Counted from the stretch's first letter, positions 13,610-46,071 are shown. The stretch is 64,000 nt of DNA from Actinomycetes bacterium (GCA_021803085.1 JAJZMD010000017.1:11393-75392); one strand, 5' to 3'. Program-made: numbers and translations. The notes: generated by a model from the sequence alone, not told the origin.

Positions 13610-14794
13610 GTGAGCGAGGCTGTCGTCGACCTGGAGTCGGCGCAGGCCGTCCGTCCTGCCGGACGCTTCCGCATCTACATCGGGGCCGCCGCCGGCGTGG
13701 GCAAGACCGTCGCGATGCTCGACGAGGGTTGGCGCCGCCACGAACGAGGCACCGATGTCGTGATCGGATTCGTCGAGACCCACGGCAGGCCCAAGACCAT
13801 CGAGCAGATCCGCGACCTCGAGATCGTACCGAGGAAGCTCGTCGAGCACCGGGGGGCGACCTTCCCGGAGATGGACCTCGACGCGGTCCTTCGGCGACAT
13901 CCCGAGGTGGCCCTCGTCGACGAGCTCGCCCACACGAACGTGCCCGGCTCGGGCCCGCACGAGAAGCGCTGGGAAGACGTGCTCGACCTCTTGCAAGCGG
14001 GGATCGCCGTGATCAGCAACGTGAACATCCAGCACCTGGAGAGCGTCGCAGACGCGGTCGAAGTCATCACCGGCGCCCGGATCCGCGAGCGCGTGCCCGA
14101 CTGGGTGGTGCGCAGTGCCGACCAGCTCGAGCTCATCGACTCCTCCGCGGACCAGCTCCGCCGCAGGATGCTCCATGGCAACATCTACCCGCGAGACAAG
14201 GTCCCCGCAGCGCTGAACGGCTTCTTCCGTACCGAGAACCTGGTCGCGCTGAGAGAGCTCGCGCTGCGGTTCGTCGCCGACGAGACCGAGGAGGAGCTGC
14301 TCCGGTTCCTGGAGGGTCACCGGCCTCACGGGGTATGGGACACGACCGAGCGCTTCCTCGTGGCCGTGACCGGCGCCCCGGGCACCGATGTGGTGCTGCG
14401 ACGGGCGGCACGGATGGCGCAACGTGCAAAAGGCGAGCTGCTCGTCCTCCATGTGCGGGATCCCGAACGCGAAGGGGAGGGGGTGAAGGGGGCGATCGAC
14501 GCCTTGCGGGGGCTCGCCGAGGACGTCGGGGGCAAGTGGATCGAAGCCGAGGGGGACGACCCCGCGGGCACGGTGGTGAGGGTCGCCGCGGACAGGCAGG
14601 TCACCCAGATCGTCGTCGGTGCCACCCAGCGGAGCCGCTGGGACGAGCTCACCCGCGGCTCGGTCGTCCGCAGGGTGCTGCGAGCCGCGGCGGAACAGGG
14701 CATCGACGTGCACGTCATCGCGCGCCGGGGGCTGAGCCAGGCCGAGCACGGCGGCGGAGCGGTCGACGCCGGGGAGGGCGAGGTACTTCCCTGA
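13610..14794 (+). CDS. KdpD N-terminal sensor domain + Usp domain protein, no histidine-kinase domain
   Basis: 394 aa from GTG 13610. RIYIGAAAGVGKTVAML (P-loop), VDELAHTN, NVNIQHLES, then a Usp-like region. Ends without HisKA/HATPase. Confidence 0.8.
   Translation: MSEAVVDLESAQAVRPAGRFRIYIGAAAGVGKTVAMLDEGWRRHERGTDVVIGFVETHGRPKTIEQIRDLEIVPRKLVEHRGATFPEMDLDAVLRRHPEVALVDELAHTNVPGSGPHEKRWEDVLDLLQAGIAVISNVNIQHLESVADAVEVITGARIRERVPDWVVRSADQLELIDSSADQLRRRMLHGNIYPRDKVPAALNGFFRTENLVALRELALRFVADETEEELLRFLEGHRPHGVWDTTERFLVAVTGAPGTDVVLRRAARMAQRAKGELLVLHVRDPEREGEGVKGAIDALRGLAEDVGGKWIEAEGDDPAGTVVRVAADRQVTQIVVGATQRSRWDELTRGSVVRRVLRAAAEQGIDVHVIARRGLSQAEHGGGAVDAGEGEVLP
14702..14780 (+). repeat. left copy of 79-bp direct repeat (att-like), inside the last 26 codons of the KdpD-N/Usp gene
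   Basis: 76/79 identical to 45982..46060, same orientation, 31,280 bp apart. Identity stops sharply at both ends. Confidence 0.9.
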
Positions 14795-14852
14795 GGCCGG
14801 CGGTGCCGCGGCGGCCGCCAGGCCCTCGGGGGAGGGCGCGGCGGCTCCTCCG

Positions 14853-16379
14853 TCAAGGCGAGGCGGGCGCTTCCTGGACTTTCAGCGCCGAGGCTGCGGC
14901 AGCGTCACCCGCGATCCTGCCGAACACCGAGCCGTTGGTCAGCCCCGTACCGCCCGGATAGTTGAAGTAGAAGATGCCTCCGACGAGCTCGCCGGCCGCG
15001 AACAACCCCTTCAGCGGGTCGCCCTCGGTGTCGATCACCTGCGCCTGCTCGTCGATCCGGAGGCCGCCGAACGTGAAGGTCACCCCGCAGGTCACGCCGT
15101 AGGCCTCGAACGGTGGGGTGTCGACGGTGTTCGCCCAATTGCTCTTGTTGATCGCCAGCCCGACCGTCCCTCGGCCGTCCTTCACGTTCGGGTTGAACGC
15201 CACGTCTTGCTGGACTGCGGCGTTGTACTCCTCGATCGTAAGGAGGAACTGGTCGGCATCGACCCCTTCGAGCTTCGACGCGAGCTCCGGCAACGACTTC
15301 CCCGTCACCTTGGTCACCCGCCGGATGCGGTACTCGTCGCGCAGGAGGGGGATGATCTTCGCGTCGAACACCTGCCAGGCCATCTGGCCCGGTTGGGCGA
15401 GGATCTCCCTGCCGTACTTGGCGTAGGTGTAGTTGCGGAAGTCCGCACCTTCGTCGAGAAACCGGCGCCCGTGTGCGTTGATCATCACCGAGAGCGGGTA
15501 GCTGTGCTTCTGGAAGGCGTCCCCGACGCTGAGGTCGCCGAACGGCGGCGCATGCAGGTCCCAGCCGACTGCGTGCGCGCCGGACCAGTTCCCCCAGGCC
15601 ATGGCTCCCGCGTCGAGGGCCATCCGGATGCCGTCGCCCGTGTTGAACCGGGATCCTCGCACCTTCGCGAGATCCCAACCCGGGCCCAGATAGCGGGTGC
15701 GCCATTCGGCGTTCGCCTCGAAGCCGCCGCACGCCAGCACGACGGCCCCGGCCATCGCAATGTGCTCGTCGTCGTCCTTCACGTAGCGGACCCCCACGAC
15801 CCGTCGGCGCTCGGTGACGAGCGCCGTCGCGCGGGACTGGTAGCGGATCGAGCAGCCCGCGCGCTGGACGGCGGCGGTGAGCGCGTCGATCAGCCCTGGA
15901 CCGCCTCCCATCGCCTCGATCGTGAGCCCGCCCCAGAAGGTGAACTTCCCGTCGACGAGGTACGCCTGGCGCCCGTAGATGGGAAGGAAGCGGACGCCCT
16001 TGGCCCGCATCCACTGGAGGGTCGCGAAGCTGCGCTTCACGAGGATCTCAGCCAGGTCCGGGTCCGTGCGGTACTCCGTCACCCGGCCGAGATCGTCGAG
16101 GAACTGGCTCGCGGGGTAACGACCGAAGTCCGTCTTCTCGATCTGCTCAGGGGAGAGGTCGGGGACGAGAGCCAGGATGTCGTCCACGCCGTCGTAGGCG
16201 AACCGCATCGCGCCGGCGGTGAAGGTCGAGTTGCCACCGCGCTCTTCGAACGGCGCGCGCTCGAGCACGAGCACCTTGGCCCCCGCGTCCTGAGCAGCCA
16301 GCGCGGCACAGAGCGCCGCGTTGCCACCGCCAACCACCACTACGTCGTAATGCTCGTCCACTGCTCCTCCTGTCGGCAT
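14853..16379 (-). CDS. FAD-dependent dehydrogenase, tricarballylate dehydrogenase TcuA-like
   Basis: 508 aa. DVVVVGGGNAALCAALAAQDAGAKVLVLERAP..RGGNS and PPFEAYGVTCGVTFTFGGLRIDE resemble TcuA. Confidence 0.75.
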   Translation of the reverse strand: MPTGGAVDEHYDVVVVGGGNAALCAALAAQDAGAKVLVLERAPFEERGGNSTFTAGAMRFAYDGVDDILALVPDLSPEQIEKTDFGRYPASQFLDDLGRVTEYRTDPDLAEILVKRSFATLQWMRAKGVRFLPIYGRQAYLVDGKFTFWGGLTIEAMGGGPGLIDALTAAVQRAGCSIRYQSRATALVTERRRVVGVRYVKDDDEHIAMAGAVVLACGGFEANAEWRTRYLGPGWDLAKVRGSRFNTGDGIRMALDAGAMAWGNWSGAHAVGWDLHAPPFGDLSVGDAFQKHSYPLSVMINAHGRRFLDEGADFRNYTYAKYGREILAQPGQMAWQVFDAKIIPLLRDEYRIRRVTKVTGKSLPELASKLEGVDADQFLLTIEEYNAAVQQDVAFNPNVKDGRGTVGLAINKSNWANTVDTPPFEAYGVTCGVTFTFGGLRIDEQAQVIDTEGDPLKGLFAAGELVGGIFYFNYPGGTGLTNGSVFGRIAGDAAAASALKVQEAPASP

Positions 16380-16398
16380 CTCCTGTGGGCAACGGGGT

Positions 16399-17607
16399 CT
16401 AGGCCAGCAGCTTCTCGTCGTATGGGAACTTCGTCAGCCGTTCCGGGCCGCCAGCCCCCACCGCGATCACGTCCTCCAGCCGGACCCCTCCGCCACCGGG
16501 AATCCCCTCGACGATGATCGTGGGGACGACGGCCACGACCGTTCCCTCCTCCACCGTGAAGGAGGGCGTGCTCCGACCTGGAGGCGAGATGAACGGCGGC
16601 TCGGCGTACCCCACGCCGATGCCGTGCGCGATCACCATCTTCTGCATGAACCGCCCGAGCTCGTTGTCGGAGAGGGCCTGCTCGGCGGCCTGCTGGACGT
16701 CGGTGCCGCTCCTCCCGGGCACCAGGGCCTTGATGACCTCCTCGTGGACGGAATGCGCGAGCGAGTAGACGGCCCTCTGCCTTCCGTTGGGCTCGCCGCA
16801 GACGACCGTCCGGGTCGCTTCGCTGAACACGCCGTTGAAGCAGGCGCCGATGTCCATGAAGACGAGGTCGCCGGGCCGGACCATCGTCTCTCCCGCGAAC
16901 CGCTGCATGGGGGCGGTGTTCTCTCCCGTGCACACGATCAGGTTGCACTGAGGGATCTCGGCGCCGTGGCGATAGAAGACTCGCATCACCTCCGCCAGGA
17001 TCTCGCACTCGCGGATCCCCGGCTGGACGCAGCTCACGGCCACATGGAGCGCCGCGTCCACCACGGCGGAGGCGATCCGCATGAGCTCGACCTCCTCGGG
17101 GAACTTGACCGCCCGAGCAGCATTGAGGCACCCGTTCCCATCGACCACTTCACTGCCTCGCAGGAGAGCCTCGATGTTGCGGAGGCTTGCCGTCGTGCCG
17201 ATGTCGACACCGACACGTCCGTTCTTGAAGCCGAGGTCCTTCAGCGCGGCGCCGATCGGGGCGATGGCGTCTGCGCCGCCGCCCTCGAGCATCGTCCCCG
17301 TCGGGAATTCGCGCACGTGCCCCTCTGGCATCCAGTACATCGTCTTCCTGCGGTGCGGGGTGTCGTCCTGATGGACGAAGCAGATCACGTCGTCCGAGGC
17401 CGAGGTGACGACCGCTGCCTGACGCACCAGGAAGTTCGGCGCGTACAACGGCCGCAGGCCCGCCAAGTAACGTCCGTTGGCGTACTCGAAGGCGACGAGC
17501 GCGTCGAGCCCGAAGCGCTCCATCATCTCGTGTGCGCGGGCGACGCGCTTTCGACGCAGAAGGTCGATGTCCACTTCACGCTTCCAATCTGAGGCTATTG
17601 ACGTCAT
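16399..17607 (-). CDS. M24-family metallopeptidase/hydrolase (creatinase/Xaa-Pro peptidase/ectoine-hydrolase-like)
   Basis: 402 aa. N-terminal creatinase-like domain and pita-bread C-terminal domain (VFMDIGACFNGVFSE..AHGIG..VRLEDV). Confidence 0.75.
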   Translation of the reverse strand: MTSIASDWKREVDIDLLRRKRVARAHEMMERFGLDALVAFEYANGRYLAGLRPLYAPNFLVRQAAVVTSASDDVICFVHQDDTPHRRKTMYWMPEGHVREFPTGTMLEGGGADAIAPIGAALKDLGFKNGRVGVDIGTTASLRNIEALLRGSEVVDGNGCLNAARAVKFPEEVELMRIASAVVDAALHVAVSCVQPGIRECEILAEVMRVFYRHGAEIPQCNLIVCTGENTAPMQRFAGETMVRPGDLVFMDIGACFNGVFSEATRTVVCGEPNGRQRAVYSLAHSVHEEVIKALVPGRSGTDVQQAAEQALSDNELGRFMQKMVIAHGIGVGYAEPPFISPPGRSTPSFTVEEGTVVAVVPTIIVEGIPGGGGVRLEDVIAVGAGGPERLTKFPYDEKLLA

Positions 17608-17625
17608 CGTCGCTCCTTCTGGCGA

Positions 17626-18627
17626 TTACTCGAACCGGGGCAGGATCTTCTCGGCGTAGACCTCGAGGCCGCGGAACGTCTCTTCGATGTCGTCGATCGG
17701 CACAAACGAGACGGTGAGCTCCTCGACACCTGACTGGCGATAGGCGTCGAGGCGCTGGTACACCTGCTCGAGCGACCCCGCGACCACCGGGCCGTCCTGC
17801 AGGAGCTGGTCCTCTGGGATCGTGGACCAGTCCTCGCGCCGTCGGAGCACCTCCGCCACGCGACGGGTCGACTTGTCGTCCCCGGGCACTGCGGAGTACA
17901 CCATCAACCCCGCCCCGATCCATCCGGTGCGCCCGTGCTCCTGAGCTTGTGCGCGAATCTCCTCGATGCCGGATCGGTAGGCGCTCGCGCCGAGGGCGCC
18001 GTGCTGAGGCGCCGCTGGTGCCCACCCGTCACCGATCCGGGCGACCGCACCTCGGATGCGGTCCGACGAGCCGCCCAGCCAGATGCCGGGCCAGCGCACC
18101 GGCTTGGGCCAGAACTCCACGTGCTCCAGCCGGTAATAGGTGCCCGAGTGCTCGACCGGGCCCTCTTCGGTCCAGAGCCGGCGGATGACGTCGAGACCCT
18201 CCAGCATCCGATCGAACCGCTCGACGAAGGGAGGGAACTCCAGCCCGAAATTGGCGTACTCCGAACGCTGGTGCCCCGCACCTGCCTGCAGCACGAAACG
18301 GCCGCCCGAGAGCTGATCGAGGGTCGCGCCCCAGCGGGCGACGTCGACCGGCCGGCGGAGACCGATCGGCGTCACCTGCGGGCCGAACCGCACTCGGGAC
18401 GTCGCGGTCGCGATGGCTGCGAGCAGCATGTACGCGTCCGGAAAGCTTGGCCGCGCCAGATCGTCGGTCGTGTACCCGGCCATCCGCTCTCTCGGCAGCC
18501 ATTGGTGGTCGATGCAGTACACCGAGTGGAACCCCACCTCCTCCGCTCGCTGCGCGAGCCGGACGAAGTCACGCAGATCACGGTGCTGAGGCTGCCCATG
18601 GGCATTGATCTTGAAGGAGAACTTCAT
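17626..18627 (-). CDS. LLM-class flavin/F420-dependent oxidoreductase
   Basis: 333 aa from the internal ATG (MKFSFKINAHG..). GFHSVYCIDHQW, GIWLGGSS. Confidence 0.8.
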   Translation of the reverse strand: MKFSFKINAHGQPQHRDLRDFVRLAQRAEEVGFHSVYCIDHQWLPRERMAGYTTDDLARPSFPDAYMLLAAIATATSRVRFGPQVTPIGLRRPVDVARWGATLDQLSGGRFVLQAGAGHQRSEYANFGLEFPPFVERFDRMLEGLDVIRRLWTEEGPVEHSGTYYRLEHVEFWPKPVRWPGIWLGGSSDRIRGAVARIGDGWAPAAPQHGALGASAYRSGIEEIRAQAQEHGRTGWIGAGLMVYSAVPGDDKSTRRVAEVLRRREDWSTIPEDQLLQDGPVVAGSLEQVYQRLDAYRQSGVEELTVSFVPIDDIEETFRGLEVYAEKILPRFE

Positions 18628-18643
18628 CTGCTCGTGGCGCCTT

Positions 18644-19597
18644 TCAGGGTTGCGGAGCCGCGTTGGGAGGCTCCTCGTCGACGACGGGGTTGCGCAGCGT
18701 GTCAAGACCCGTGACGGAGACCGACAGCTCGTCGCCGGCCTTGAGAAACCACTTGGGTGTTCTCGCGTTGCCGATGCCGGCCGGAGTCCCGGTGGCGATG
18801 ACATCTCCAGGGTTGAGCTGCGTCCACTCCGAGATGTACGCGATCAGCCGGCGAACTGGAAAGATCATTGTCGCCGTGCTCGCCTTCTGCACCACAGTGT
18901 CGTTTACCCGCGTCTCCAGATCGAGGCTCTGAGGATCTGCGATCTCGTCCGTCGTGACGAGGTAGGGGCCGTACGACCCCGAGTGCACGAAGTTCTTCCC
19001 AGCCGTCCACTGCACGGCCCGGTGCTGGTAGTCGCGGACCGAACCGTCGTTGAAGATCGCGTATCCAGCTACGACATCGAGCGCGCGAGGTTCGTCCACG
19101 TAGCGGCACGAACGACCGATGATCACCGCCAATTCACCCTCCCAGTCGAGCTGGACGGACTTGATCGGCCGCTCGATGGGCTCGCGGTGGGCGACCTGGC
19201 TGTCCTCGTAGCGGCAGAACAGCACGGGGTCTCCCGGGACCTCCCTCTTGCTCTCTTGGATGTGCTCCATGTAGTTGCGCCCCACGCACAGGATCTTCTG
19301 AGAGCCGGGCGTCGGCACCGCGAACTCGACCGCGTCCATGGAGAGCAGCAGCGTCTGGGGCGTCACTCCACTGGCACGGGTGACGGCATCTGCCAACGCG
19401 GCCAGCCGCTCGCCACCCGACGAGAGCAGGTCGACCATCTTCGTCGGCGATGGCAGCGGTGGGACGAGCAGCTCTGCGAACTCGTCGTCGCCGCGGGCGA
19501 CGGTCGCCCGCTCGAGGGCGTCGACGTCGAGACCTCCGTCACGCACCTTCACGCCGGCCCGCACCACTCCGTCCCGTCGATATGAGAACAGTTTCAA
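18644..19597 (-). CDS. fumarylacetoacetate hydrolase (FAH) family protein
   Basis: 317 aa. DWEGELAVIIG, GDVIATGTPAGIG. Confidence 0.8.
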   Translation of the reverse strand: MKLFSYRRDGVVRAGVKVRDGGLDVDALERATVARGDDEFAELLVPPLPSPTKMVDLLSSGGERLAALADAVTRASGVTPQTLLLSMDAVEFAVPTPGSQKILCVGRNYMEHIQESKREVPGDPVLFCRYEDSQVAHREPIERPIKSVQLDWEGELAVIIGRSCRYVDEPRALDVVAGYAIFNDGSVRDYQHRAVQWTAGKNFVHSGSYGPYLVTTDEIADPQSLDLETRVNDTVVQKASTATMIFPVRRLIAYISEWTQLNPGDVIATGTPAGIGNARTPKWFLKAGDELSVSVTGLDTLRNPVVDEEPPNAAPQP

Positions 19598-19670
19598 TGC
19601 ATCTCCATCTCTCGTTCGGCTCCTTCTGGTCTCCCGCCGGGCCCTCGCAATCGGACCTCGATGGCAGTGG

Positions 19671-20519: not shown

Positions 20520-21085
20520 CGCCTCCATTCCTCCCGATCGCCTGCCGCACCGCCTCCGCGCTGCGCGATCCCCTCGGGCTCGGTCTGTCCGTGCGCGGGA
20601 GACAGGCCGGCGATCGGAGCGTGCTCCTTCTTCGAGACCATCACGGCGCGCCGGAAGCGCGTCACCAGGACCCCGTCTTGGTTGCAGCCACGCGTCTCGA
20701 TCTCGACGACGCCCTGGCCCGACCGGCTCTTCGACTCCCGCTTGTCCAGCACCTCCGACTCGGAGCACGAGGTGTCCCCTGCGAAGACGGGGTGTGGAAG
20801 CTCGATGCTCCCCCACCCGAGGGCGAAGCCGTTCTCGCTCACATCTGCGGTGCTCAGGCCCGTCCCCGCCACATGCGTCAGGAGCGAGTTGACCAGGCAC
20901 CGGCCCCACTCGGTACGACGCGCACAGTCGTCGTTGAAGTGGAGCTGGTTCGAGTTGCTGGTGAGCAGGCTGAACGAGATGTTGTCGAACTGGGTGATCG
21001 TGCGGCCGTACCGGCAGCGGTACACGTCCCCCGCCGCGAAGTCCTCGTAGAACCTCCCGCTCCAGCCGGGTCTAATCCGGGTCAT
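20516..21085 (-). CDS. MaoC-family (hot-dog) dehydratase, itaconyl-/mesaconyl-CoA hydratase-like
   Basis: 189 aa. FYEDFAAGDVY..RTITQFDNISFSLLTSNSNQLHFN. Confidence 0.7.
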   Translation of the reverse strand: MTRIRPGWSGRFYEDFAAGDVYRCRYGRTITQFDNISFSLLTSNSNQLHFNDDCARRTEWGRCLVNSLLTHVAGTGLSTADVSENGFALGWGSIELPHPVFAGDTSCSESEVLDKRESKSRSGQGVVEIETRGCNQDGVLVTRFRRAVMVSKKEHAPIAGLSPAHGQTEPEGIAQRGGGAAGDREEWRR

Positions 21086-21107
21086 GCGGGGTTCCTTCTC
21101 GCGCCTT

Positions 21108-27729: not shown

Positions 27730-28755
27730 TCAATTCCCGACTGCCACGTCGCCGAGCCGGGGAAGGACCCCTTCGGCATAGTGCTCGACCGTTCGCCGAG
27801 CGTTGTCCATCGTCATGGGAACGGGGCACACGGTCACGTACCTCGCTCCAGCGGCGGCGTACCGCTCGATTTGGCGAAGACAGTCCTCCGCGGTCCCCAC
27901 GGCCAGCACTCCGGACTCCTGCATGGACTCGAGCGAGATGTCCTTCCAGTCGACGCGCAGCTGCTGGGCACTCGCAGCTCCCCACGCCGCGTCGCGTGTG
28001 CCGGAGATCGTGGTGTTGATGAGGACAGCCGGAGTGATCTCCTCGGGGTTCCTGCCGTAGGCCGTCGCCCGCTCACGGATGTCCGCCCAGCCCTGCCGGT
28101 AGACGTCGGGGCTCACGGCGTTGTAGTGAGGCGCAGCCGGCGTCCAGCCGTCTCCCAACTTCGCCACCAGGTCTCTGCTGGTCGTCCCGCTCCCCCCGAC
28201 CCATATGGGCAGGTGCGCCCCCTGCACCGGCTTGGGGAAGAAGGGGGCTCGCTGCAGGTGGTAGTGCTCACCCGCGTAGTCGACCGGATCGGGTGATCCG
28301 AAGAGCGAGCGCATCATCTCCATCGCTTCGACCACCATCTCGGTCCGGCGGCGGTGCGACGCCTCGAACGGCAGGCCGAACGCCTCGTACTCTCTGGCCG
28401 GCCAGCCAGTCCCCACGCCCAGGACCAAGCGCCCTCGCGAGAGGACGTCGATCGTCGCAGCCATCTTCGCCACGAACGCTGGATGGCGCAATGGCAAGGG
28501 CGTGACGAGCGTGCCCAGTCGGATCCTCGACGTGACGGCGGCGCACGCGGCCAAGAGGGAGTAGCACTCGAGCTGGTAGGGGCGGTCGACGTCGCGCTCG
28601 AACGCGAGGTAGCGATCCCCTTCCAAGAACATGTGGTCGACGAAGAAGAGTGCGTCGAACTTGCTCGCGTCCAGGTCGCGCACCAGCTCGAGCAACGACT
28701 GGCACTGGTCGGCATCGACGAACGGCGGCGTCATGAGCAAGAGTCCGAGTGACAC
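27730..28755 (-). CDS. LLM-class flavin/F420-dependent oxidoreductase
   Basis: 341 aa from GTG comp(28753..28755), with GGGAGG 10 nt upstream. FDALFFVDHMF, LGVGTGW, PIWVGGSG. Confidence 0.75.
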   Translation of the reverse strand: MSLGLLLMTPPFVDADQCQSLLELVRDLDASKFDALFFVDHMFLEGDRYLAFERDVDRPYQLECYSLLAACAAVTSRIRLGTLVTPLPLRHPAFVAKMAATIDVLSRGRLVLGVGTGWPAREYEAFGLPFEASHRRRTEMVVEAMEMMRSLFGSPDPVDYAGEHYHLQRAPFFPKPVQGAHLPIWVGGSGTTSRDLVAKLGDGWTPAAPHYNAVSPDVYRQGWADIRERATAYGRNPEEITPAVLINTTISGTRDAAWGAASAQQLRVDWKDISLESMQESGVLAVGTAEDCLRQIERYAAAGARYVTVCPVPMTMDNARRTVEHYAEGVLPRLGDVAVGN

Positions 28756-33829: not shown

Positions 33830-34594
33830 TCACGCCAGTGCCTCGATCATCTCCGGGAGCTTTCCGAGCCTCACGGAGATGGACTCCGCCGCGCGAGCCA
33901 GCTTCGACCCGATCTCCGGTATCTGCTTCCGCTCGAGCCTGTACGTGGGGATCGTGATGGTCAGTGCCCCGACGATCCGGTCGCGCGACATGACCGCAGA
34001 CGCGATCCCGGAGGCTCCTTCGATCCGCTCCCCGTTGCTGGTCGCGTAGCCCCGCTTGCGGATCGCGGCAAGCTCCTTCAGCAGGCTGTCGCGGTCGACG
34101 ACCGTCCGCTCGGTGAACTTCGGGAGGTCGATGCCCAACACGACCGACTCGGGCAGGTACGCCAGCATGGCCTTCGCCGTTGCGCCCGCGTTCAGCGGCA
34201 CTCTCATTCCGGGCTCGATGACGTACCGGACCGGACGGTCGCACTGGACCGATGCGCTGAACACGGCCTCGTGGTGGGTCCCGTTGTAGAGCGCGAGGTG
34301 CGCCGTCTCGTTCACGTCGTCGACCAGCTCGCGCATCACCGCGTACGCCACGGTCATGAGGTCGGAGCGCCCGAGCAGCCGGCTGGCGAGCGCGTAGAGG
34401 TTGGCCCCGGGCGAGTAGCGAGCGTTCTCGGACTGGACCGCGAGGCTGCGCTGCTCCAAGGAAGCCAGAATGCGCTGCACGGTACTTGGGCCCATGCCGA
34501 GCTTCGCCGCGAGCTCGCGCACTCCCCACTCCCGGTCGGGGTGGTTCATGAGCACCCTCATCACTGCGAGCAACCGATCAATTTGTTCCGCCAC
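33830..34594 (-). CDS. IclR-family transcriptional regulator
   Basis: 254 aa. N-terminal wHTH (VRELAAKLGMGPSTVQRILASL) and C-terminal IclR effector domain. Confidence 0.85.
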   Translation of the reverse strand: MAEQIDRLLAVMRVLMNHPDREWGVRELAAKLGMGPSTVQRILASLEQRSLAVQSENARYSPGANLYALASRLLGRSDLMTVAYAVMRELVDDVNETAHLALYNGTHHEAVFSASVQCDRPVRYVIEPGMRVPLNAGATAKAMLAYLPESVVLGIDLPKFTERTVVDRDSLLKELAAIRKRGYATSNGERIEGASGIASAVMSRDRIVGALTITIPTYRLERKQIPEIGSKLARAAESISVRLGKLPEMIEALA

Positions 34595-34707: not shown

Positions 34708-35754
34708 TCACTCGGAAGACATGAAGTTCGGCATGACCTCCTCGGCGAAGATCCGCATCCGACGGATCGTCTCGTCAGCATCGCGGATCGGCACGAAGCC
34801 GAGCGTGAAGTAGCGTGCTCCTGCATCGACGAATGGCTCGAGGAAGCGCGTCACTGCTTCTCCATCCCCGATCAGCGCGACGCCCTTGGCGCCCATCTCC
34901 TCGACGGACATCTCCTTCCACGCGTCGCGCCTGCGCAAGGTGGAGGCGGCCTCCGACGCCTCCGCCGACGTCGTGTCGATCACGACGAAGAAGAGGGCAG
35001 CCCCGAGGATCCGCGCGGGGTCCCGGTGGTACTCCTCGGCGGCCATGCGGCGGATCTCGGAGAGAGAGCTGGCGTAGAAGTCGGCCTCCAGACCCGTGTA
35101 GTGCGGCGCAGCCGGCGTCCAGGCGTCGCCCATCCGCGCGACGAGGCGCCGGGTGGAGGGGCCGCTCCCGCCGATCCACATCGGCGGGCGCGGCTTCGTC
35201 ACCGGCTTCGGCCACATGGTGGCGCCCTTCAGCTGGTAATGCTCACCCTGGTAGTCCACGGCTTCCCGGGTCCACAGTGCGTCGATGACCTCCATGCCCT
35301 CGACGAGCTGCGCGTACCGCGTCGAGAAGGACTCGACGTATGGCAATCCGTAACGGTGGTACTCGTCGGGGTTCCACCCCGTTCCCACCTGAAGCACGAA
35401 GCGCCCTTCCGAGAGCCAGTCGATCCCCGCACCGAACTTCGCCATGAGCGCCGGGTGGTACCGCATCATCGGCGTCACCTGCGGACCGATGCGGATCCGC
35501 CGCGTCCTTGCTGCGAGGGCCGCCATGGCCGTCCAGGCCTCCGGAAAGAACGGCCGGCCGAGATCGGCGTAGTCCGAGAAGCCCGCCACTTGGTCCGGCG
35601 GAAGGAACAGGTGATCGATCGTGTACACGGCGTCGAACCCGAGCTCCTCTGCCTCCTGTGCCACCCTGACGAAGTCAGCGAACCTCGTCTCCACGGGATG
35701 GCCGTACATGTTGAGCTTCAGCGCGAATTTCACGCCGGCCGACCGGTAGTCCAT
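34708..35754 (-). CDS. LLM-class flavin/F420-dependent oxidoreductase
   Basis: 348 aa from the internal ATG (MDYRSAGVKFALKLN..). GFDAVYTIDHLF, QVGTGWN, PMWIGGSG. Confidence 0.8.
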   Translation of the reverse strand: MDYRSAGVKFALKLNMYGHPVETRFADFVRVAQEAEELGFDAVYTIDHLFLPPDQVAGFSDYADLGRPFFPEAWTAMAALAARTRRIRIGPQVTPMMRYHPALMAKFGAGIDWLSEGRFVLQVGTGWNPDEYHRYGLPYVESFSTRYAQLVEGMEVIDALWTREAVDYQGEHYQLKGATMWPKPVTKPRPPMWIGGSGPSTRRLVARMGDAWTPAAPHYTGLEADFYASSLSEIRRMAAEEYHRDPARILGAALFFVVIDTTSAEASEAASTLRRRDAWKEMSVEEMGAKGVALIGDGEAVTRFLEPFVDAGARYFTLGFVPIRDADETIRRMRIFAEEVMPNFMSSE

Positions 35755-39362: not shown

Positions 39363-40381
39363 GCGGCTCCCTCCCCGAGCAACGTACGCACGCGGCCCAC
39401 GACGAACCGGACCGGCCGGCTCTGCCACTTGAGCGCTCCGTCGAAGCCCAGCACCGGGCTTCGCTCCGGGAACAGCCCGCGGGGCCTGAGGTAGAGGAAG
39501 ACGAGGATGATCAGCCCGATGATGCAGTTCTGCAGGGCCGGGAGGAATGTCGCAGCTCCGGCTGGGGCGGGGATGAAGAGGACCGCCTGGGGCACGCCGA
39601 TGAGGACGACGCTCGCTCCGAAGAGCACGCCCCACACGCTCCCCACTCCGCCGACGATGATCCCCGAGAACAAGAGGAACGTCTCGAGCGGAGACCAGCC
39701 CGCGGGGCTGAAGGCGCTCACGTACTGCAGGAGCAGCACGCCGCCAAGGCCGCCGACGGCAGATCCGAGCACGTACGCGGCCAGCTTGCGACGGTACGGA
39801 CTGATGCCGAACGCCGAGACGCTGATGGGGTCGTCTCGCACCGCCCGGAGCGTCCGGCCGAACGCGCTCCGGTAGAGCACCTCGAAGAGGAAGACGACGA
39901 CCACCAGCACCGCCGCCACGAGCCCCAGCAGGAAGAGGTTGTAGCCCGAGTAGGAGAAGCGCAGCACTCCCCCGAACGCGTGCGGCACGCCGTAGATGCC
40001 CTGGGGCCCGTTGAACAGCGGCGCGTACTGGTCGCTGAAGGTGTAGAAGATCAACGTGACCGAGAGCGTGACGATGGCAAAATAGTCGCCCGTCACACGC
40101 CGCAGCGCGATCGACCCCACGACGAGCCCGACGACCGCACAGACCGCGACGGCGACGATCGTGCCCACGAAGAACGACTGGTGCAGCCCGAGGACGTAGA
40201 AATTGCCTTCCGAAGCGTTCGGCGGGGGGAGCATCATCACGCCGCACACGTAGGCGCCGAGGGCGACGTAGGCGTAGTACGACAGGTTGAGATCTCCTGC
40301 CCACCCGTACTGGACGTTCAAGCCCATTGCGAGGATGACCGTGATCCCGCCAAGGGTCAGGACGCTGATCGCATATGTCAT
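39359..40381 (-). CDS. HAAT-family ABC transporter permease (LivM-like)
   Basis: 340 aa, multi-TM. Confidence 0.85.
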   Translation of the reverse strand: MTYAISVLTLGGITVILAMGLNVQYGWAGDLNLSYYAYVALGAYVCGVMMLPPPNASEGNFYVLGLHQSFFVGTIVAVAVCAVVGLVVGSIALRRVTGDYFAIVTLSVTLIFYTFSDQYAPLFNGPQGIYGVPHAFGGVLRFSYSGYNLFLLGLVAAVLVVVVFLFEVLYRSAFGRTLRAVRDDPISVSAFGISPYRRKLAAYVLGSAVGGLGGVLLLQYVSAFSPAGWSPLETFLLFSGIIVGGVGSVWGVLFGASVVLIGVPQAVLFIPAPAGAATFLPALQNCIIGLIILVFLYLRPRGLFPERSPVLGFDGALKWQSRPVRFVVGRVRTLLGEGAA

Positions 40382-41265
40382 ACGGCAAACCTGCGGGCGC
40401 TCGATCGGCCCCCGAAGAGCCCGGTGGGCCTGATCAGGATCGTGGCGATGAGCAGGATCAGCGCCACGACCTCCTTGTAGTCGGAGCTGATGTACACGGC
40501 AGCGACTGTCATCCCCAGCCCCACGATCAGCGCCCCGAAGAGGGCGCCGCCGACATTGCCGATGCCGCCGACGACCGCCGCCGCGAAGATGATGAGGAGA
40601 TAGTCGAACCCGAGGGTGGGCACCAGGGCTCCGGCGGTCAAACCGAGAACGAAGCCTGCGATCCCCGTCAGGACTCCGGAGACGGCCCAGGTCAGCTGGG
40701 TGAGCATCCCTGCCGGCAGACCCGACACCCGCGACAGGTCACGATGGTCGGCGACGGCTCGGACTGCCTTTCCGATGAAGGTGAACTTCAGCGTCGCGTG
40801 GAGCCCTGCGATCACCACCAGCGCAACGCCGATGATGACCAGTTGCTCGGTCGTGAACAGGAAGGGCCCGATGTGCTCGGTCGCCCCTTGGATCGTGGGG
40901 AAGGCGGTCGCGTTGCCGCCGAAGATGATGAGGAGCACGTCTTGGATGATGAGCGAGCCTGCCAACGTCGAGACGACAGCCGTGAGCCGGTTGGTCCCCC
41001 GGCTAGCAAAGGGCCGGATCAGCGCCATGTACACCAGCCATGCCATCGCGGCTCCGGCAAGCGCCGCGGCGATCCCGTCGATCGCGATGGAGTGGAACGG
41101 CCCGTTCGCGGCGTACGCCGCATATGCTCCGACGGTCATGATGTCGCCTTGGGCGAAGTTGGGGAGGCGCGACACCCCGTACTGAAGCGACAGGCCCGTC
41201 GTCGCGAGCGCGAGCAGCGCTGCCGTCACCACACCGAACCCGACCGCGTTGAAGAATGCTGTCAC
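40378..41265 (-). CDS. HAAT-family ABC transporter permease (LivH-like)
   Basis: 295 aa, multi-TM. 4-nt overlaps on both sides. Confidence 0.85.
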   Translation of the reverse strand: MTAFFNAVGFGVVTAALLALATTGLSLQYGVSRLPNFAQGDIMTVGAYAAYAANGPFHSIAIDGIAAALAGAAMAWLVYMALIRPFASRGTNRLTAVVSTLAGSLIIQDVLLIIFGGNATAFPTIQGATEHIGPFLFTTEQLVIIGVALVVIAGLHATLKFTFIGKAVRAVADHRDLSRVSGLPAGMLTQLTWAVSGVLTGIAGFVLGLTAGALVPTLGFDYLLIIFAAAVVGGIGNVGGALFGALIVGLGMTVAAVYISSDYKEVVALILLIATILIRPTGLFGGRSSARRFAV

Positions 41266-42638
41266 GGCAAGGCTCCGGTGGATCCGTCACTCGGGAGCGC
41301 ACCGAGCTTCGACGCGACGGGGGCAGCCTCCTCGTACCCTTCCTCCTCGAACCCCTCCTCCTGGGCCCCTTCTTGGCTGAAGCGCCGGTACCAGGGCCAC
41401 GGCGTGCGCGCCGCCCGCGAGTACGGTCCTTCACCAGGCTGGAGGTACCGGATGCGGCGCCCCGAAGAGCTGCCGGGCGCGGCGTCGAGGTGGGCCTCGA
41501 GCCAGTCGAACGAGTACATGTTGATGTCGCTTCCCCACACGGGGACCCCGCGTCCGTCAGCGACGTTCACTTGATGATGCTGGTCGGCGAAGATCCACAG
41601 CTCCCGGTCGTTGGTCATGAGGTCGAAGAGCCGCAGCACCTCCCGGACGGGGCTGCGCGCGTCGTACTCTCCGACCGCCCAAAGGCAGGGGCAGCGCACA
41701 CCGGGGAGCAGATCGTCGAGACGCATGCCCCGCATGATCTCGTTGAGCTCGTCTTCCGAGGCTGCTCCCGTCAGGTACATGAACAGCCACCGCCAGCGAG
41801 GGCCCTCCACGTTCATCAGGTAGTACTTGTCGCATCCCGAGAACAGGGGTGCCGCCGCGGCGCGGATCCTGTCGTCGTGAGCGGCGGCGGCCATCGCCCA
41901 CTGGGAGCTGAAGCTCATCCCGTAGACGCCGATGCGCCTCTCGTCCACCTCCGGGAGCCTGCTCACCACGTCGATCGCCGCGCTCACTGCCCGCGCGTAG
42001 TTGGTCGAGGTCAGCTTGAGGTCGCGGAGGTTGGCCTCACCCTGGCCGGGCCCGTCGAGGACGAGCATGTGCATTCCTCGCTGCGCCGCATGGTTGGCCC
42101 CAGGGCCCGGGTACATCTCCTTCGTCATGTCGCAGCCCGGCAGGGCCACGACGCATGGGGCAGGGGATGGGACGTCGGCCAGGTGGAGGTACGCCCCAAG
42201 GCTTGTGCCCTCGAACGGGATCAGGACGTGACGAATCTCGGGACTGGTGAGCGACGCGTAGGCTGCGTAGCAGCGCATCGCTCCCTCGTGGAGGAACTGC
42301 TTCTCCTCGTTGGTCTCGAAGATGACGTGCTGAGCGGCAGCGTAGGTGTTGGAGGCCGTGAAGAAGTGGTGCTTGGCGGTCTCTGCCGCACCCGCTTCCA
42401 TCGCGTCCTTCGCCAGCATCTCGGCCTTGCCCGCCGCAAGGCCGAGATGCTTGCTGATCATCGCGTGGGTGCGGACTGTGGCGGGGAGTGTGCGCCCGTT
42501 GGCCTTCTGGAAGTGGTACACCCGTCCAGTCGTCTGGACCAGCCAGTCCAAGACCCACCGGTCGTTCTCCCTCGGCGGCCGCCGGAGCTCTGCACCCCAC
42601 TCCGAGGTTGACGCCGCCAGTGATCGGTCCTCGCCCAC
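41262..42638 (-). CDS. alpha/beta-fold hydrolase paralog 2 (DHPON-hydrolase/FrsA-like), intact GMSFS nucleophile elbow
   Basis: 458 aa. LPGCDMTKEMYP, VYGMSFSSQW, GEYD, ADQHH. Acidic C-terminal tail. Confidence 0.7.
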   Translation of the reverse strand: MGEDRSLAASTSEWGAELRRPPRENDRWVLDWLVQTTGRVYHFQKANGRTLPATVRTHAMISKHLGLAAGKAEMLAKDAMEAGAAETAKHHFFTASNTYAAAQHVIFETNEEKQFLHEGAMRCYAAYASLTSPEIRHVLIPFEGTSLGAYLHLADVPSPAPCVVALPGCDMTKEMYPGPGANHAAQRGMHMLVLDGPGQGEANLRDLKLTSTNYARAVSAAIDVVSRLPEVDERRIGVYGMSFSSQWAMAAAAHDDRIRAAAAPLFSGCDKYYLMNVEGPRWRWLFMYLTGAASEDELNEIMRGMRLDDLLPGVRCPCLWAVGEYDARSPVREVLRLFDLMTNDRELWIFADQHHQVNVADGRGVPVWGSDINMYSFDWLEAHLDAAPGSSSGRRIRYLQPGEGPYSRAARTPWPWYRRFSQEGAQEEGFEEEGYEEAAPVASKLGALPSDGSTGALP

Positions 42639-42818
42639 CTGCTGTTCCCCTACTCGTCGTGCCGTCCGCAGTGGTCCTCGTTCGTGCCCCGCGTCGCCGG
42701 CTTCTGGCCGATGCTAACCCCCCCCGATTTGGACCTCCTTCGGGGCAATCGGGGGTTGGCCGTCTCCCGTCGACCTCTACGGAACAGGCACGGCTGGGCG
42801 TGCGATCACAGGGCGGTC

Positions 42819-42851
42819 GGAGCGGAGCGACCCGACGGCCGGCTCCGCTCC
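42819..42851 (-). terminator. 10-bp perfect stem-loop (GGAGCGGAGC..GCTCCGCTCC) just after the SBP stop
   Basis: Read directly. No clear U-tract, so it may attenuate or stabilise rather than terminate. Confidence 0.35.
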
Positions 42852-42870
42852 GCACCCGCCTTCTCCAGCG

Positions 42871-44187
42871 TCAGGAGCTCACCTTCTTCAGCTCCGCGGC
42901 GCTGATGGCGTTGAGCGTCTTCACGCTCTTGCCTGTCGCACTGACTTGCGTCGCGCTCCAGGAGCCGAATTCGTTGTGGTACTGGTTGTATGTGTCCGGA
43001 CCTGCGGCACCTGTGTAGTTGATCTTCTTGTGCCCCTTGAGGAGCTGAAGGCCCTTGGGGTATGTGTAGACGATCTGCCCCGGTGCGTTGCTCACCTTCG
43101 TCACGTCCTTGTTCCAGACCTTCGGGTTGGAGGTGCCCGCGTAGTCCATCGCCAGGGCCGCGATGTTCACGGCGTCGTAGACGTAGTTGGCACCTGCCTG
43201 TGCTCCGACGATGGCTGTCTTGCGGCTCACGCCGTTGGCCACTGCGTAGTCGTGCAAGAACGTCTTCACCGCCGGCCCGCTACCTGTGGAGCCCGGCTGC
43301 AGGGAGACGAGGTGCTTGTGGACCACTGTCGCCCCCACGGCCTTGGTGAATGTCACGGCCGCCGTCAGTGTGGTGCCGATGAACTGGTCGTTGAGGCCGT
43401 TCACCTCGCGGTAGTTGTTCATGATCGTCGCGGCATTGGTCGCCGGGATGTCCACGAAGATGCACTGGGGGTGGCCCGTCAGGCTCTTCTCGACCTCGGA
43501 CAGGTAGGACGTCTGGTTCAGGGCGAAGAACTGCAGAGTCAGGATCTTGCCTCCGAGCCTCGAGAACACTCGCTTGAGGTCAGGTGCCAGCTGGTTGTCC
43601 GGTGTGCCGGCCTGGAAGAGGATGGCGCCGGTCTTGCAGCCGCGATTGTGACCTTCGACGGCCATCGCAGCCGCAAGCTGGGAGTCCGAGGGCGTGATGC
43701 GCCAGAGCAACGGGTTCCGGTTGTGGTCGAAATTGAGGCTGCCAGCGGCCGTGAAGTTCGGGATGCCCGCGTGATCGGTGATCGGCTCCAAGGCGAAGAC
43801 GGTCAGCGTCGACTCGCCGATCAGAACGGAGGGGTGATTGGTCGCGATCTCCTTCTTCTGAGCGGGGACCGCATCGACCGGGTCTCCGTAGTCGTCGGTC
43901 TTATCGAGGACGAGCTGGTGACCGTTGATGCCGCCCGCCTTGTTGATGTCGTACGCAGCAGCCTTCGCGCCGGCCCACGCAGCCGCCCCGAACGACGCGT
44001 ACGTCCCGGTGTAGGAGTTGGTCATGTCGAAGTGGACGGGCGCCCCGTGGAAGCGGGGCCCGGACCTGTGTGCGACTGCCGCGTCGGCGACGCCCAAACA
44101 GGTCGCAGCGATGACTCCGACGCTCAGCACTGCCGAGAACGTCAGGGTCCACATCGTTCGAACCGACTTGCGATGCGTCCTGGTCAT
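42871..44187 (-). CDS. HAAT-family (LivJ/K-like) periplasmic/lipoprotein-type substrate-binding protein
   Basis: 438 aa from the internal ATG (MTRTHRKSVRTMWTLTFSAVLSVGVIAA.. signal peptide). GAKAAAYDINKAGGINGHQL. Confidence 0.8.
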   Translation of the reverse strand: MTRTHRKSVRTMWTLTFSAVLSVGVIAATCLGVADAAVAHRSGPRFHGAPVHFDMTNSYTGTYASFGAAAWAGAKAAAYDINKAGGINGHQLVLDKTDDYGDPVDAVPAQKKEIATNHPSVLIGESTLTVFALEPITDHAGIPNFTAAGSLNFDHNRNPLLWRITPSDSQLAAAMAVEGHNRGCKTGAILFQAGTPDNQLAPDLKRVFSRLGGKILTLQFFALNQTSYLSEVEKSLTGHPQCIFVDIPATNAATIMNNYREVNGLNDQFIGTTLTAAVTFTKAVGATVVHKHLVSLQPGSTGSGPAVKTFLHDYAVANGVSRKTAIVGAQAGANYVYDAVNIAALAMDYAGTSNPKVWNKDVTKVSNAPGQIVYTYPKGLQLLKGHKKINYTGAAGPDTYNQYHNEFGSWSATQVSATGKSVKTLNAISAAELKKVSS

Positions 44188-44522
44188 GTCTGTGACCCCC
44201 CTCGGAGTTGTCCCACTGTTTCGCCCGTGGGTTGGGATTGGTGGTTGCGCTTGACAGCTGGGTTGATGATCGTGCGCGACAGGCGGGCGGCGTGAGCCTC
44301 CTGTCGTCCTGCTCGGAGTTGGAGCCGACCCCTGCCCTGACGTCAGCTCGTGCGATCCGCAGCCCGGACCGCCCGGAGGCTCGCGCAGCGCAGCCACCGA
44401 ATCGGAGCCGCCATCCTGGTGCTACTCCGTGTAACGAGGCGTGATGCTGGCCGCGCTGCTCTCCCCTTCCGACATCGTGTCGCTAAGTCAGCAGAACGCT
44501 GAATCTGGTGACGAGAAGTAGT

Positions 44523-44538
44523 ATGGGACACTGTCCCA
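44523..44538. promoter_or_regulatory. perfect 7-1-7 palindrome (A)TGGGACA-C-TGTCCCA, candidate IclR operator
   Basis: Lies in an AT-richer patch of the 508-bp divergent SBP-operon/MFS intergenic region. Near-identical to the site upstream of iclR (34633..34648). Confidence 0.5.
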
Positions 44539-44695
44539 AATCTGTCAACCCTCTTCGACGATGCGCCCGGCACGTCGTGAGGGCCCGACCACGGAGTTCG
44601 GACGATGAAGACCACACGGCGATGACGCGACGGCTCCATGCCGCGCCTCGTCGAGTAGCGCCACGACATCGACCACGCGCCGCTCGAGACCTCGG

Positions 44696-45982
44696 ATGGA
44701 TGACGGCGCACGTCGGAAGCCCGAGACGGGCGACTCGGACGCAAGGGTGTGGGCGGTGAACGGCCGCGCGCTGCGCGTGGTGCGCGCGGCAGATTGGACG
44801 GGCACCGGCCGCGGCGTCTTCTTGGCCGCCGCGGTCACCGTTGTCGGCATCTCTCCCGTCTTCCTGGTCAGCGCCCAGGGCGTCGACGTCGAACGTACCC
44901 TCCGCATGACGGTGGCGGACATCGGCATTGCCGTGGGCGCATTCTCGGGCGCAACTGCGCTCTCGACGGCCGTGCTCGGGCGCGTCGTCCAGCGGATCGG
45001 CATTCGCCGTGGCCTCGTCGGAGCGATGGCAGCGTCCATCGTCGCCTTCGCGTGGATCGCGTTGTCTCGAACACCGCTCGTGCTCTACGGCGCACTCGTG
45101 TTCGCCGGTGCCATCAACGGAGCGGCTCAGCCGAGCGCGAACGCGCTCTTGGCGACGAACCGGGCCCGGCGCCCCGCTCAGGCGTTCGGGATCAAGCAGG
45201 CCTCCGCGACCGGAGCAAGCCTCCTCGCGGGGCTCGTCGTCCCGCTCGTCGCGCTCACCGTGGGATGGCGGTGGTCGTTCGTGGCGATGTGCGTGCCGAG
45301 CACGGGCCTGGCCGCGATCTCCCTCATCTACGTGCCCGACCAACGGAAGGCCGAGCGGGCGCAGCCTCCGAAGAGAATGCGGGACGGACCGGACGTGCCG
45401 ATCGCGGTCTTGGCGGTCGCCGGCGGGTTCGGCGCTGCCGCGGGGAACGCCTTCGCGGCCTTCTTCGTCCTCTACGGCGTCCACTCCCAGCATGTCGCGC
45501 AGTCGACCACTGCACTGATCTTCGCGCTCGCGAGCCTCTCCGGCGTCATCGGTCGTGTGATGAGCGGCCGTGCAGTCGACAGTGCGGGGTTGCCGGCGAC
45601 GGTGCTCGCGGGGTGCCTGGTCATGTGTGGCGTCGCGGGGGACCTTCTGATCGCGTCGACGCCATTCGGGACCATCGGGTCGTTGGTCGTGGGGGGCGTG
45701 GTGGCGGTCGGCCTCGGCTGGGCATGGCCCGGGCTGATCCACTTCGACGTCGCCAGCCGGGATCCCCGCCGCGCGGCCCGGTCGACCGGCGTCGTCTTGA
45801 CCGGCTTCGCGACGGGAGCATGTGTCGGTCCGCTGCTGCTCGGCGAGCTCGCGCGGGCGTCCGGCTTCGGGATGCTCTGGCGGGTCGTCGCCGTCCTGAA
45901 CTTGGCAGCGGGTCTCGTCCTTCTCGTCGGCACCCGCCTCTCTCGACGGTCGGCGCTCGTCTCCACACTGTCCGAGCCGTGA
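44696..45982 (+). CDS. MFS transporter
   Basis: 428 aa, about 12 predicted TM segments. The start could be the GTG at 44744. Confidence 0.75.
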   Translation: MDDGARRKPETGDSDARVWAVNGRALRVVRAADWTGTGRGVFLAAAVTVVGISPVFLVSAQGVDVERTLRMTVADIGIAVGAFSGATALSTAVLGRVVQRIGIRRGLVGAMAASIVAFAWIALSRTPLVLYGALVFAGAINGAAQPSANALLATNRARRPAQAFGIKQASATGASLLAGLVVPLVALTVGWRWSFVAMCVPSTGLAAISLIYVPDQRKAERAQPPKRMRDGPDVPIAVLAVAGGFGAAAGNAFAAFFVLYGVHSQHVAQSTTALIFALASLSGVIGRVMSGRAVDSAGLPATVLAGCLVMCGVAGDLLIASTPFGTIGSLVVGGVVAVGLGWAWPGLIHFDVASRDPRRAARSTGVVLTGFATGACVGPLLLGELARASGFGMLWRVVAVLNLAAGLVLLVGTRLSRRSALVSTLSEP

Positions 45983-46071
45983 TCGACGTGCACGTCATCG
46001 CGCGCTCGGGGCTGAGCCAGGCCGAGCACGGCGGCGGAGCGGTCGACGCCGGAGAGGGCGCGCGCCCCTGA
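45982..46071 (+). pseudogene. orphan 3'-end fragment of a KdpD-N/Usp-type gene (right copy of the 79-bp direct repeat plus own stop)
   Basis: Codes IDVHVIARSGLSQAEHGGGAVDAGEGARP*, versus IDVHVIARRGLSQAEHGGGAVDAGEGEVLP* at 14702..14794. There is no matching coding sequence upstream. Confidence 0.8.

Follow-up and report, generated by a model that had tools for sequence, protein, structure and literature searches.

A 31-kb catabolic block bracketed by a probable relic of a partial KdpD-N/Usp gene duplication in uncultured Acidimicrobiales-type bacteria

The 64,000-nt stretch of Actinomycetes bacterium assembly GCA_021803085.1 analysed here (JAJZMD010000017.1:11393-75392; hereafter the window) carries a 31-kb block of catabolic genes between two direct repeats that duplicate the 3' end of an intact, kinase-less KdpD-N/Usp gene. 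The original prediction, made from the sequence alone, had read these repeats as the att-like signature of an island that entered by site-specific integration and has no integrase. The data presented in this study suggest a different history. The repeat is probably the worn relic of a partial KdpD-N/Usp duplication left by one old insertion of the block, which has since been deleted repeatedly by general recombination between the two copies. The evidence for this comes from empty sites in near-identical relatives, from a longer version of the relic in sister lineages and from sequence exchange between the copies.

Relatives were sought by scanning the KdpD-N/Usp protein against one genome per species, which places the window among uncultured Acidimicrobiales and 'Actinomycetes bacterium' metagenome-assembled genomes (MAGs); the exact protein (P0304) is present in the public collection. 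Carriers of the block were traced through its first gene, which is TcuA-like, right junctions through members of the MFS transporter cluster, and additional empty-site contigs through full-length KdpD-N proteins that end in the native (orphan-copy) tail. The contigs, given here by L numbers, fall into lineages A (the window; sub-lineages A1 and A2, the latter being the sister sub-lineage of the window), B (B1 and B2) and C. Left junctions of filled alleles come from carriers other than A2 and B2. Comparisons of recombinases and repeat cores covered the locus contigs as assembled sequence.

The repeat pair and the empty site

The two repeat copies lie 31,280 bp apart in the same orientation and agree at 76 of 79 positions (BLAST E = 8.7e-32). 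A search of the window allowing up to three mismatches returned just these two sites, and none of 100 dinucleotide-preserving shuffles contained any match, which confirms the repeat as it had been described. The left copy corresponds to codons -30 to -5 of the KdpD-N/Usp gene, whose start is approximate (products are called at 393-436 aa) and whose product ends in ...GEGEVLP, with the stop ending at 14794. The right copy translates in frame as IDVHVIARSGLSQAEHGGGAVDAGEGARP followed by a stop, and its first base is the A of the MFS stop codon TGA (45980-45982). No KdpD-like sequence was found upstream of the right copy in the window, in keeping with the claim that it is an orphan with no coding partner there. 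The features at the two junctions are as follows.

13610-14794, + strand: KdpD-N/Usp gene, intact and kinase-less (Pfam KdpD 6e-87, Usp 5e-14; translation)
14702-14780, + strand: left repeat copy, inside the functional KdpD-N/Usp gene, reading IDVHVIARRGLSQAEHGGGAVDAGEG (repeat search)
14781-14852, + strand: block-side surrogate tail, consisting of the last 4 codons (EVLP), the stop and a 58-bp spacer (alignments)
45982-46060, + strand: right repeat copy, the orphan native 3' end of KdpD-N/Usp (repeat search; longer version in lineage B)
46061-46084, + strand: native tail with the codons for ARP and a stop at 46069-46071, then the native spacer up to the metX-like gene (aligned to L001, L104 and L088)

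The native tail and spacer at 46061-46084 are continuous with the sequence found at empty sites, and the left tail of the window has homologs in the left tails of carriers from lineages B and C. When tails were compared against shuffled sequence, the left tail did not significantly resemble the right tail (p=0.18) and weakly resembled the left tail of lineage B (p=0.026). The functional gene now ends in a surrogate tail from the block side, and the orphan copy is the native 3' end of the gene, still joined to its own spacer and the metX-like gene. A duplication that once reached past the stop codon in the window was also considered and was not retained, given the lack of significance in the comparison of left and right tails.

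If the block is a discrete unit, related genomes should contain a site where KdpD-N/Usp is followed directly by the metX-like gene, as the original prediction had proposed. This arrangement, with a single core, was found in 9 contigs from 8 assemblies made with two assemblers. The contigs (L001, L098-L101, L102 and L104-L106) were assembled with megahit (k=141) or metaSPAdes from different samples, L106 being a third-party assembly. The metX-like gene lies 11-13 bp after KdpD-N/Usp in these contigs, and the empty alleles consist of the 5' part of the left copy joined to the native tail. L001 is syntenic with the window on both sides at 90-96% amino-acid identity, its KdpD-N/Usp gene being followed by metX-like and metY-like genes. 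Positions 3354-6924 of L001 align to window positions 11258-14782 and positions 6842-9766 align to 45982-48968; since these flank alignments meet at one core, a single core copy joins both flanks exactly.

Filled and empty alleles coexist within sub-lineages A2, B1 and B2, whereas no empty allele was found in lineage C. The closest comparison is in B1, where empty L102 shows 0 mismatches over 7,171 bp to filled L081 and 1 over 6,159 bp to filled L089, for a total of 1 difference in 13.3 kb; this sole mismatch is a T/G site inside the repeat. The empty B2 contigs L098-L101 carry the diagnostic variants of the right copy of filled L091, and over 141 bp the empty A2 contigs L104-L106 show no difference from the right junction of filled L088. 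These comparisons support the view that the block is gained or lost as one discrete unit, the repeats being its exact limits. Two of the empty contigs, L098 and L105, were both assembled from sample ERZ27237044 and have reciprocal mosaic flanks, one with a lineage B left side and a lineage A right side and the other the reverse. Strain-switching by megahit at the conserved KdpD-N/metX junction is the likely cause of these mosaics, the alternative being real recombination between lineages.

It is hardly credible that the empty sites are an assembly artefact in which assemblers jumped across the repeat while the block is in fact fixed in the clade. Such an artefact would fit with the fact that L001 and L102 are metaSPAdes MAG contigs, that the lineage B repeat (142 bp) exceeds the usual SPAdes k-mers, and that the flanks of L102 are identical to those of a block-bearing megahit contig. 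However, five of the empty contigs, from four samples, were built by megahit at k=141, where a unitig cannot skip 31 kb, and the B1 copies differ at one site, leaving no 141-mer in common. Empty contigs also occur in two species-level lineages and in the independent third-party assembly (L106). The artefact was thus rejected for practical purposes.

A longer relic and exchange between the copies

The MFS gene of lineages B and C ends in TAG rather than TGA and is followed by more KdpD-N pseudogene sequence. At the right junction of lineage B the TAG and a 22-nt spacer precede ~145 bp that match KdpD-N nt ~595-751 (77.7% identity, with frameshifts; E ~5e-30). The relic then has a deletion of nt 751-1027, which contain the Usp domain, and continues with the last 142 bp of the gene, 99.3% identical to the left copy of the same genome, before the native tail, spacer and metX-like gene. 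The right junction of lineage C begins in the same way and is further decayed. The two junctions of this lineage share just 21 nt, yet the block is still present. The piece of pseudogene finds its best match in the clade's own KdpD-N (77.7%), with other lineages at 72-77% over comparable lengths. A search for its donor identified no distinct candidate, and with the closest match being the clade's own gene there is no indication of a foreign source. One further observation concerns the left gene itself, which in lineage C contig L084 (JAKASZ010000008.1, 11535-11880) is a pseudogene with large internal deletions, so KdpD-N/Usp is dispensable in that lineage.

The extent of the repeat is 79 bp in the window, 128 bp in L086 and L087, 142 bp in lineage B and ~21 bp in lineage C. 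The window, L094 and L088 are without ~233 bp that lineage B has, which leaves the core abutting the stop of the MFS gene. The abrupt left limit of the window repeat is thus the endpoint of a secondary deletion of ~233 bp. The right homology edge coincides to within 3 nt between lineages A and B and falls ~5-8 codons short of the stop. It may represent the original junction, because beyond it the tails are dissimilar, whereas left tails from different lineages retain weak similarity to one another. An att site would be marked by fixed core limits in all carriers and by an element-side arm unrelated to the target gene, whereas the limits vary here and the arm at the right junction contains decayed mid-gene KdpD-N sequence in lineages B and C. 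With respect to a Campbell-type event or homology-facilitated illegitimate recombination (HFIR), the gene duplication starts 22 nt after the MFS stop, at gene nt ~595, and the right edge is sharp and conserved, both of which may fit such an event.

The claim that the 79 bp are an att core is not supported, since degraded KdpD-N homology, which the original prediction had named as grounds for refuting it, extends upstream of the orphan in lineages B and C, where alone it is visible. What remains of the att-type, site-specific reading in the original prediction is the discrete unit, the empty site, the surrogate tail and the absence of a recombinase.

Both copies have also continued to exchange sequence. 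Four positions within the core separate lineages A and B (A/G, A/C, T/C and A/G), and both copies carry the state of their own lineage. Since the insertion appears to predate the A/B split, gene conversion or an equivalent allelic exchange would be needed to give the two copies a common lineage state. This pattern indicates that the copies interact by homologous recombination, i.e. that they evolve in concert. At one site the lineage B copies are unlike, with T on the left and G on the right; among the empty alleles L001, L102 and L103 have T whereas L098-L101 have G. This distribution, at the single informative site, would be compatible with crossovers at different positions. Several features of a RecA-type deletion unit are found here, namely similar direct repeats that bracket the segment, a deletion product that keeps one hybrid copy, and copies that exchange sequence.

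A further sign of exchange between the copies is a change of the left tail in L086 (~11530-11660) and L087 (~2945-3075, minus strand) at the position equivalent to window 14781-14852. The left tail in these two contigs has been replaced by the native tail, the native spacer and 24 nt of the metX-like 3' end, and the repeat therefore extends to 128 bp. The longer repeat is read as a derived overwrite because lineages B and C have the window type of left tail. It was probably produced by templated repair or gene conversion from the right copy that ended at a GGAC/GG microhomology.

Content, age and wider setting of the block

The block and its surroundings contain the following features.

14853-45982, no strand: catabolic block, 31,130 bp and 27 genes (Pfam; GC content; missing as a unit from empty-site contigs)
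14853-16379, - strand: first block gene, TcuA-like FAD-dependent oxidoreductase (Pfam FAD_binding_2; 95% homologs in the same context)
33830-34594, - strand: IclR-family regulator (Pfam IclR_C, HTH_IclR)
44696-45982, + strand: last block gene, MFS transporter, with a TGA stop that overlaps the first base of the right repeat (Pfam MFS_1)
46085-47140, - strand: metX-like alpha/beta-hydrolase gene, first gene of the right flank (Pfam Abhydrolase_1 only; the metX name is taken from the original prediction)
47203-48552, - strand: metY-like pyridoxal phosphate enzyme, right flank (Pfam Cys_Met_Meta_PP 4e-132)

Besides the TcuA-like oxidoreductase, the IclR regulator and the MFS transporter, the block encodes an M24 peptidase/creatinase-like protein, three luciferase-like monooxygenases, two FAA hydrolases, four enoyl-CoA hydratases, two acyl-CoA dehydrogenases, a family III CoA-transferase, an MmgE/PrpD protein, a 2-hydroxyacid dehydrogenase, an ADP-forming acyl-CoA synthetase, two alpha/beta hydrolases and a Liv-type ABC transporter. 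One block open reading frame (ORF) of 209 aa has no Pfam match. Pfam found no integrase, relaxase or transposase across all block ORFs, the domains being solely catabolic, transport and regulator domains, and the description of the block as catabolic cargo free of such genes is thus correct. No tyrosine or serine recombinase was found by Pfam in block or flank ORFs, and none is annotated in ~11 carrier loci. Searches for tRNA and tmRNA genes and for Rfam families revealed no RNA-gene target and no riboswitch at the junctions.

The block has a GC content of 67.7%, below the 72.4% and 72.0% of its flanks (per-gene p ~1e-6), and the shifts coincide with the repeats. The drop falls mostly on codon positions 1 and 2, with GC3 at 0.85 versus 0.88, and tetranucleotide profiles are highly correlated with those of the flanks. 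The compositional case for a foreign origin of the block is thus modest. A metagenome scan with the TcuA-like boundary gene returned only homologs of 63-74% identity, with no block synteny and no KdpD-N nearby.

Within the clade, TcuA-like homologs at 95% occur in the same arrangement, KdpD-N/Usp followed by the block, in several assemblies. L086 is 98.1% identical to the window, L087 96.9%, and L081-L083 (lineage B) and L084-L085 (lineage C) ~93-94%. The MFS cluster members provided right junctions from L089-L092, L093, L088 and L094, of which L094 is 99.986% identical to the window. The block occupies the same place in the three lineages with lengths of 31.1, 31.0 and 30.7 kb, and between lineages it is 93-96% identical, compared with 91-97% for the flanks. 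Since these identities are alike, the block has co-diverged with the chromosome and bears no sign of recent transfer. The original prediction had named identical composition and conserved synteny across relatives without the repeat as evidence against its reading. This is borne out in part, synteny being conserved in three lineages (~93-98% identical) with co-divergence, and lineage C retaining the block with a residual repeat of 21 nt.

These data also bear on whether the empty allele could be ancestral and kept in the population, the filled allele having spread or been replaced by homologous recombination through the flanks, with no repeat-mediated deletion and the repeat as a scar of the first insertion. 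Both alleles do occur in the same sample series and within A2, B1 and B2, the empty 3' end is identical to the filled right copy of each sub-lineage (as expected when the right copy is contiguous with the right flank), and the mosaic flanks of L098 and L105 could reflect inter-lineage recombination. However, the alleles would have to persist in, or cross between, lineages with 5-7% divergence, even though both the block and the repeats bear substitutions specific to each lineage. The comparison of L102 with L081/L089 fits a very recent event in situ better than an import, and the mosaics, being reciprocal and from one sample, suggest strain-switching during assembly. A long-lived ancestral empty allele is therefore considered quite unlikely.

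The wider locus was compared in sister species (L095-L097), where KdpD-N is 91-93% identical and left-flank synteny is kept (thioredoxin, DUF302, PIG-L, CsoR-like, PALP and others). A different catabolic cluster lies downstream of KdpD-N/Usp in these contigs, and the position 3' of the gene is thus a spot of variable cargo. In two of them (L095 7735-7928 and L096 ~9105-9300) the KdpD-N stop is immediately followed by 31 nt that repeat the tail of the gene exactly. These join, at the microhomology GCCGTC, ~92 nt left over from the MFS 3' end of the block with ~18 nt of its spacer, and unrelated cargo comes next. The MFS remnant is 84.8% identical to the window and 79-81% identical to lineages B and C, and the KdpD-N tail (...EGEGLP and stop) resembles the block-side tail of the window. 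This scar looks like an illegitimate deletion with a templated insertion. From this it appears that at least the MFS end, and perhaps the whole block, was at the locus before the outgroup split, and that most of it was removed there by illegitimate recombination.

Orphan KdpD-N fragments beside other cargo were sought within 10 kb in 79 other species and the sister species and none were found, all additional BLAST hits falling in the same gene, so nothing points to an att-type signature that recurs. No integrative and conjugative element (ICE), integrative and mobilizable element (IME) or integrase was found 3' of KdpD-N/Usp in the loci of 80 species, the sister species and the carriers, and no ICE or prophage was found at this site in the 100+ loci examined.

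This has to be set against the possibility of a site-specific island that has lost its integrase, like a cis-mobilizable element (CIME), or never had one. A recombinase encoded elsewhere or on a visiting element would then use the KdpD-N 3' end as attL/attR to excise and re-integrate the block. The precise empty site with a single core, the surrogate 3' end on the functional gene with an orphan native 3' end (as for e14 at icd, PMC13626634), the presence or absence of the block on identical backgrounds, which suggests ongoing events, and the different cargo 3' of KdpD-N/Usp in the sister species all fit such an island. However, neither the window nor any of ~11 carrier loci has a recombinase within or bordering the block, and the lack of ICEs and prophages at the site, the inconstant extent of the repeat, the element-side arm at the right junction that is KdpD-N sequence from far upstream of the core, the lack of orphan KdpD-N fragments by other cargo and the co-divergence of block and flanks all argue against it. 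A site-specific island is thus judged unlikely, though less so than a persisting ancestral empty allele. A broader version, in which the KdpD-N/Usp 3' end is a dedicated attachment site in this Acidimicrobiales group and integrase-less catabolic islands are exchanged by a trans recombinase or an unrecognised mechanism, is more doubtful than either. If it were true, the polymorphism would reflect active excision and re-integration, and the cargo of the sister species and the MFS remnant of L095/L096 would be traces of successive occupants.

Several other features of the window and its relatives were recorded. The only mobility-type gene in the window is a DDE transposase-domain ORF at 62172-63569 (- strand; DDE_Tnp_1_6 1.6e-9, DDE_Tnp_1 6e-5), which lies 16 kb right of the block and adjoins neither repeat. 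Within the block, a 186-nt direct repeat (28099-28284 and 35074-35259, 72% identity) represents two paralogous luciferase-like monooxygenase genes. A tandem array of the 15-nt unit CGGCGCGGCTGGGGG in ~6-8 copies is found at 9186-9305, within the ORF that spans 8956-10419. This array is exactly where the alignments to L001, L081 and L082 break off (window 9208/9299), so genomes probably differ in its copy number. Another small difference in gene presence is located at 48736-49800. The glyoxalase-family gene at 48736-49227 is found in the window, L098, L104 and L106 and is not annotated in L099, L100, L102, L103 and L105; beside it, at 49756-49839, are short GCGTCAG-type tandem repeats where L001 is just 51-69% identical.

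Mechanism and known systems

The model proposed here begins with a single entry of the 31-kb block into the KdpD-N/metX junction in the ancestor of the clade. This insertion would have duplicated the final ~0.6 kb or more of the target gene, either by a Campbell-type single crossover of a circle carrying a KdpD-N fragment or by HFIR, and a duplication of at least 0.6 kb would be expected from such a homology-assisted event and not from the short core of an integrase. The upstream copy would have stayed functional with a few block-side codons as its tail, while the 5'-truncated downstream copy would have decayed at a rate that differs by lineage, gene conversion keeping the 3' ends of the two copies alike. 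Crossing-over between the copies would then delete the block precisely and restore an intact gene with its native tail beside the metX-like gene. Such deletions could account for the empty alleles in three sub-lineages as secondary losses by general rather than site-specific recombination, with no requirement for an element-encoded recombinase. Among the three explanations that the original prediction offered, 'another duplication/recombination mechanism' fits best; mobilisation in trans retains some likelihood.

Several points weigh against this model. The empty alleles provide no direct evidence for a RecA-type over a site-specific origin, as crossover mapping depends on one informative site and on left junctions from sub-lineages other than A2 and B2. 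A repeat of 79 bp is short for efficient homologous deletion, yet the sub-lineages with empty alleles have repeats of 128-142 bp or left copies that were not recovered. The surrogate-tail architecture is exactly the product of integrase-borne elements such as e14, and the search for recombinases and cores covered the locus only. The native spacer and 24 nt of metX-like 3' end in the left tail of L086/L087 are left unexplained by the model, and the MFS remnant of L095/L096 indicates that the history of the locus is older and more tangled than one event.

The significance of this locus lies in a 31-kb metabolic cluster that varies by presence and absence among near-identical genomes of uncultured soil/sediment Acidimicrobiales-type bacteria without mobile-element machinery. 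A relic gene duplication would suffice to make the cluster precisely deletable, and once the relic has decayed, as in lineage C, the cluster would be locked in. There is also a caution for genome scans: a short att-like direct repeat of a gene's 3' end may be all that is left of a longer copy that has decayed, and only comparison with sister genomes reveals which of the two it is. No new mechanistic question arises unless a trans-acting recombinase turns up.

Among known systems, the closest in anatomy is e14 at icd/icdC in Escherichia coli K-12 (as also for phage 21), where the element sits in the gene 3' end, supplies a surrogate end and leaves an orphan native 3' end, and its loss recombines icd with the orphan into an intact chimeric gene (PMC13626634, citing Hill et al. 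1989). The block resembles e14 in the surrogate 3' end on a functional gene, the orphan C-terminal pseudogene on the far side and the intact gene upon loss. However, e14 has its own integrase and excisionase and undergoes SOS-induced site-specific excision (PMC13626634), whereas the window block has no recombinase. The orphan in the window is also what is left of a far longer copy, now decayed; the repeat differs in extent among carriers, and all of the cargo is catabolic. CIMEs, defined as islands with attL/attR-like direct repeats and without integration and transfer genes (PMC6323972), are similar in their flanking att-like repeats and in the lack of integration and transfer genes in the block. 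However, CIMEs originate from ICEs or IMEs, and it is the integration of a related ICE beside them that mobilises them, while no ICE, integrase or conjugation gene was found at or near the site in relatives, and the window repeats are not a conserved att core.

For the loss of the block, the nearest parallel is the E. coli long-term evolution experiment, where recurrent parallel deletions of 23 kb between cpsG paralogs leave one hybrid functional gene (PMC13626634). Both cases have direct gene copies that bracket tens of kb, and the recurrent precise loss in three sub-lineages and the concerted copies seen here are in line with it; the difference is that one of the 'paralogs' here is a decayed 3' fragment of 79-142 bp and that the DNA between the copies is a compositionally distinct accessory block instead of native genes. 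For its arrival, HFIR is known to leave orphan 3' regions at type VI secretion system (T6SS) effector-immunity arrays and Rhs loci (PMC5361080; mechanism in PMC3240628). There too a conserved upstream gene serves as homologous anchor, new DNA is placed downstream and the ancestral 3' part is displaced as an orphan, though the T6SS and Rhs modules are 1-3 kb and belong to naturally transformable or conjugating Proteobacteria, whereas this block is 31 kb and its original event is read from a scar. Taken together with these systems, the block is most likely a genomic island of a known kind, in which the remains of a partial gene duplication flank the cargo and recombination between the two copies removes it, and not a new mobile element.

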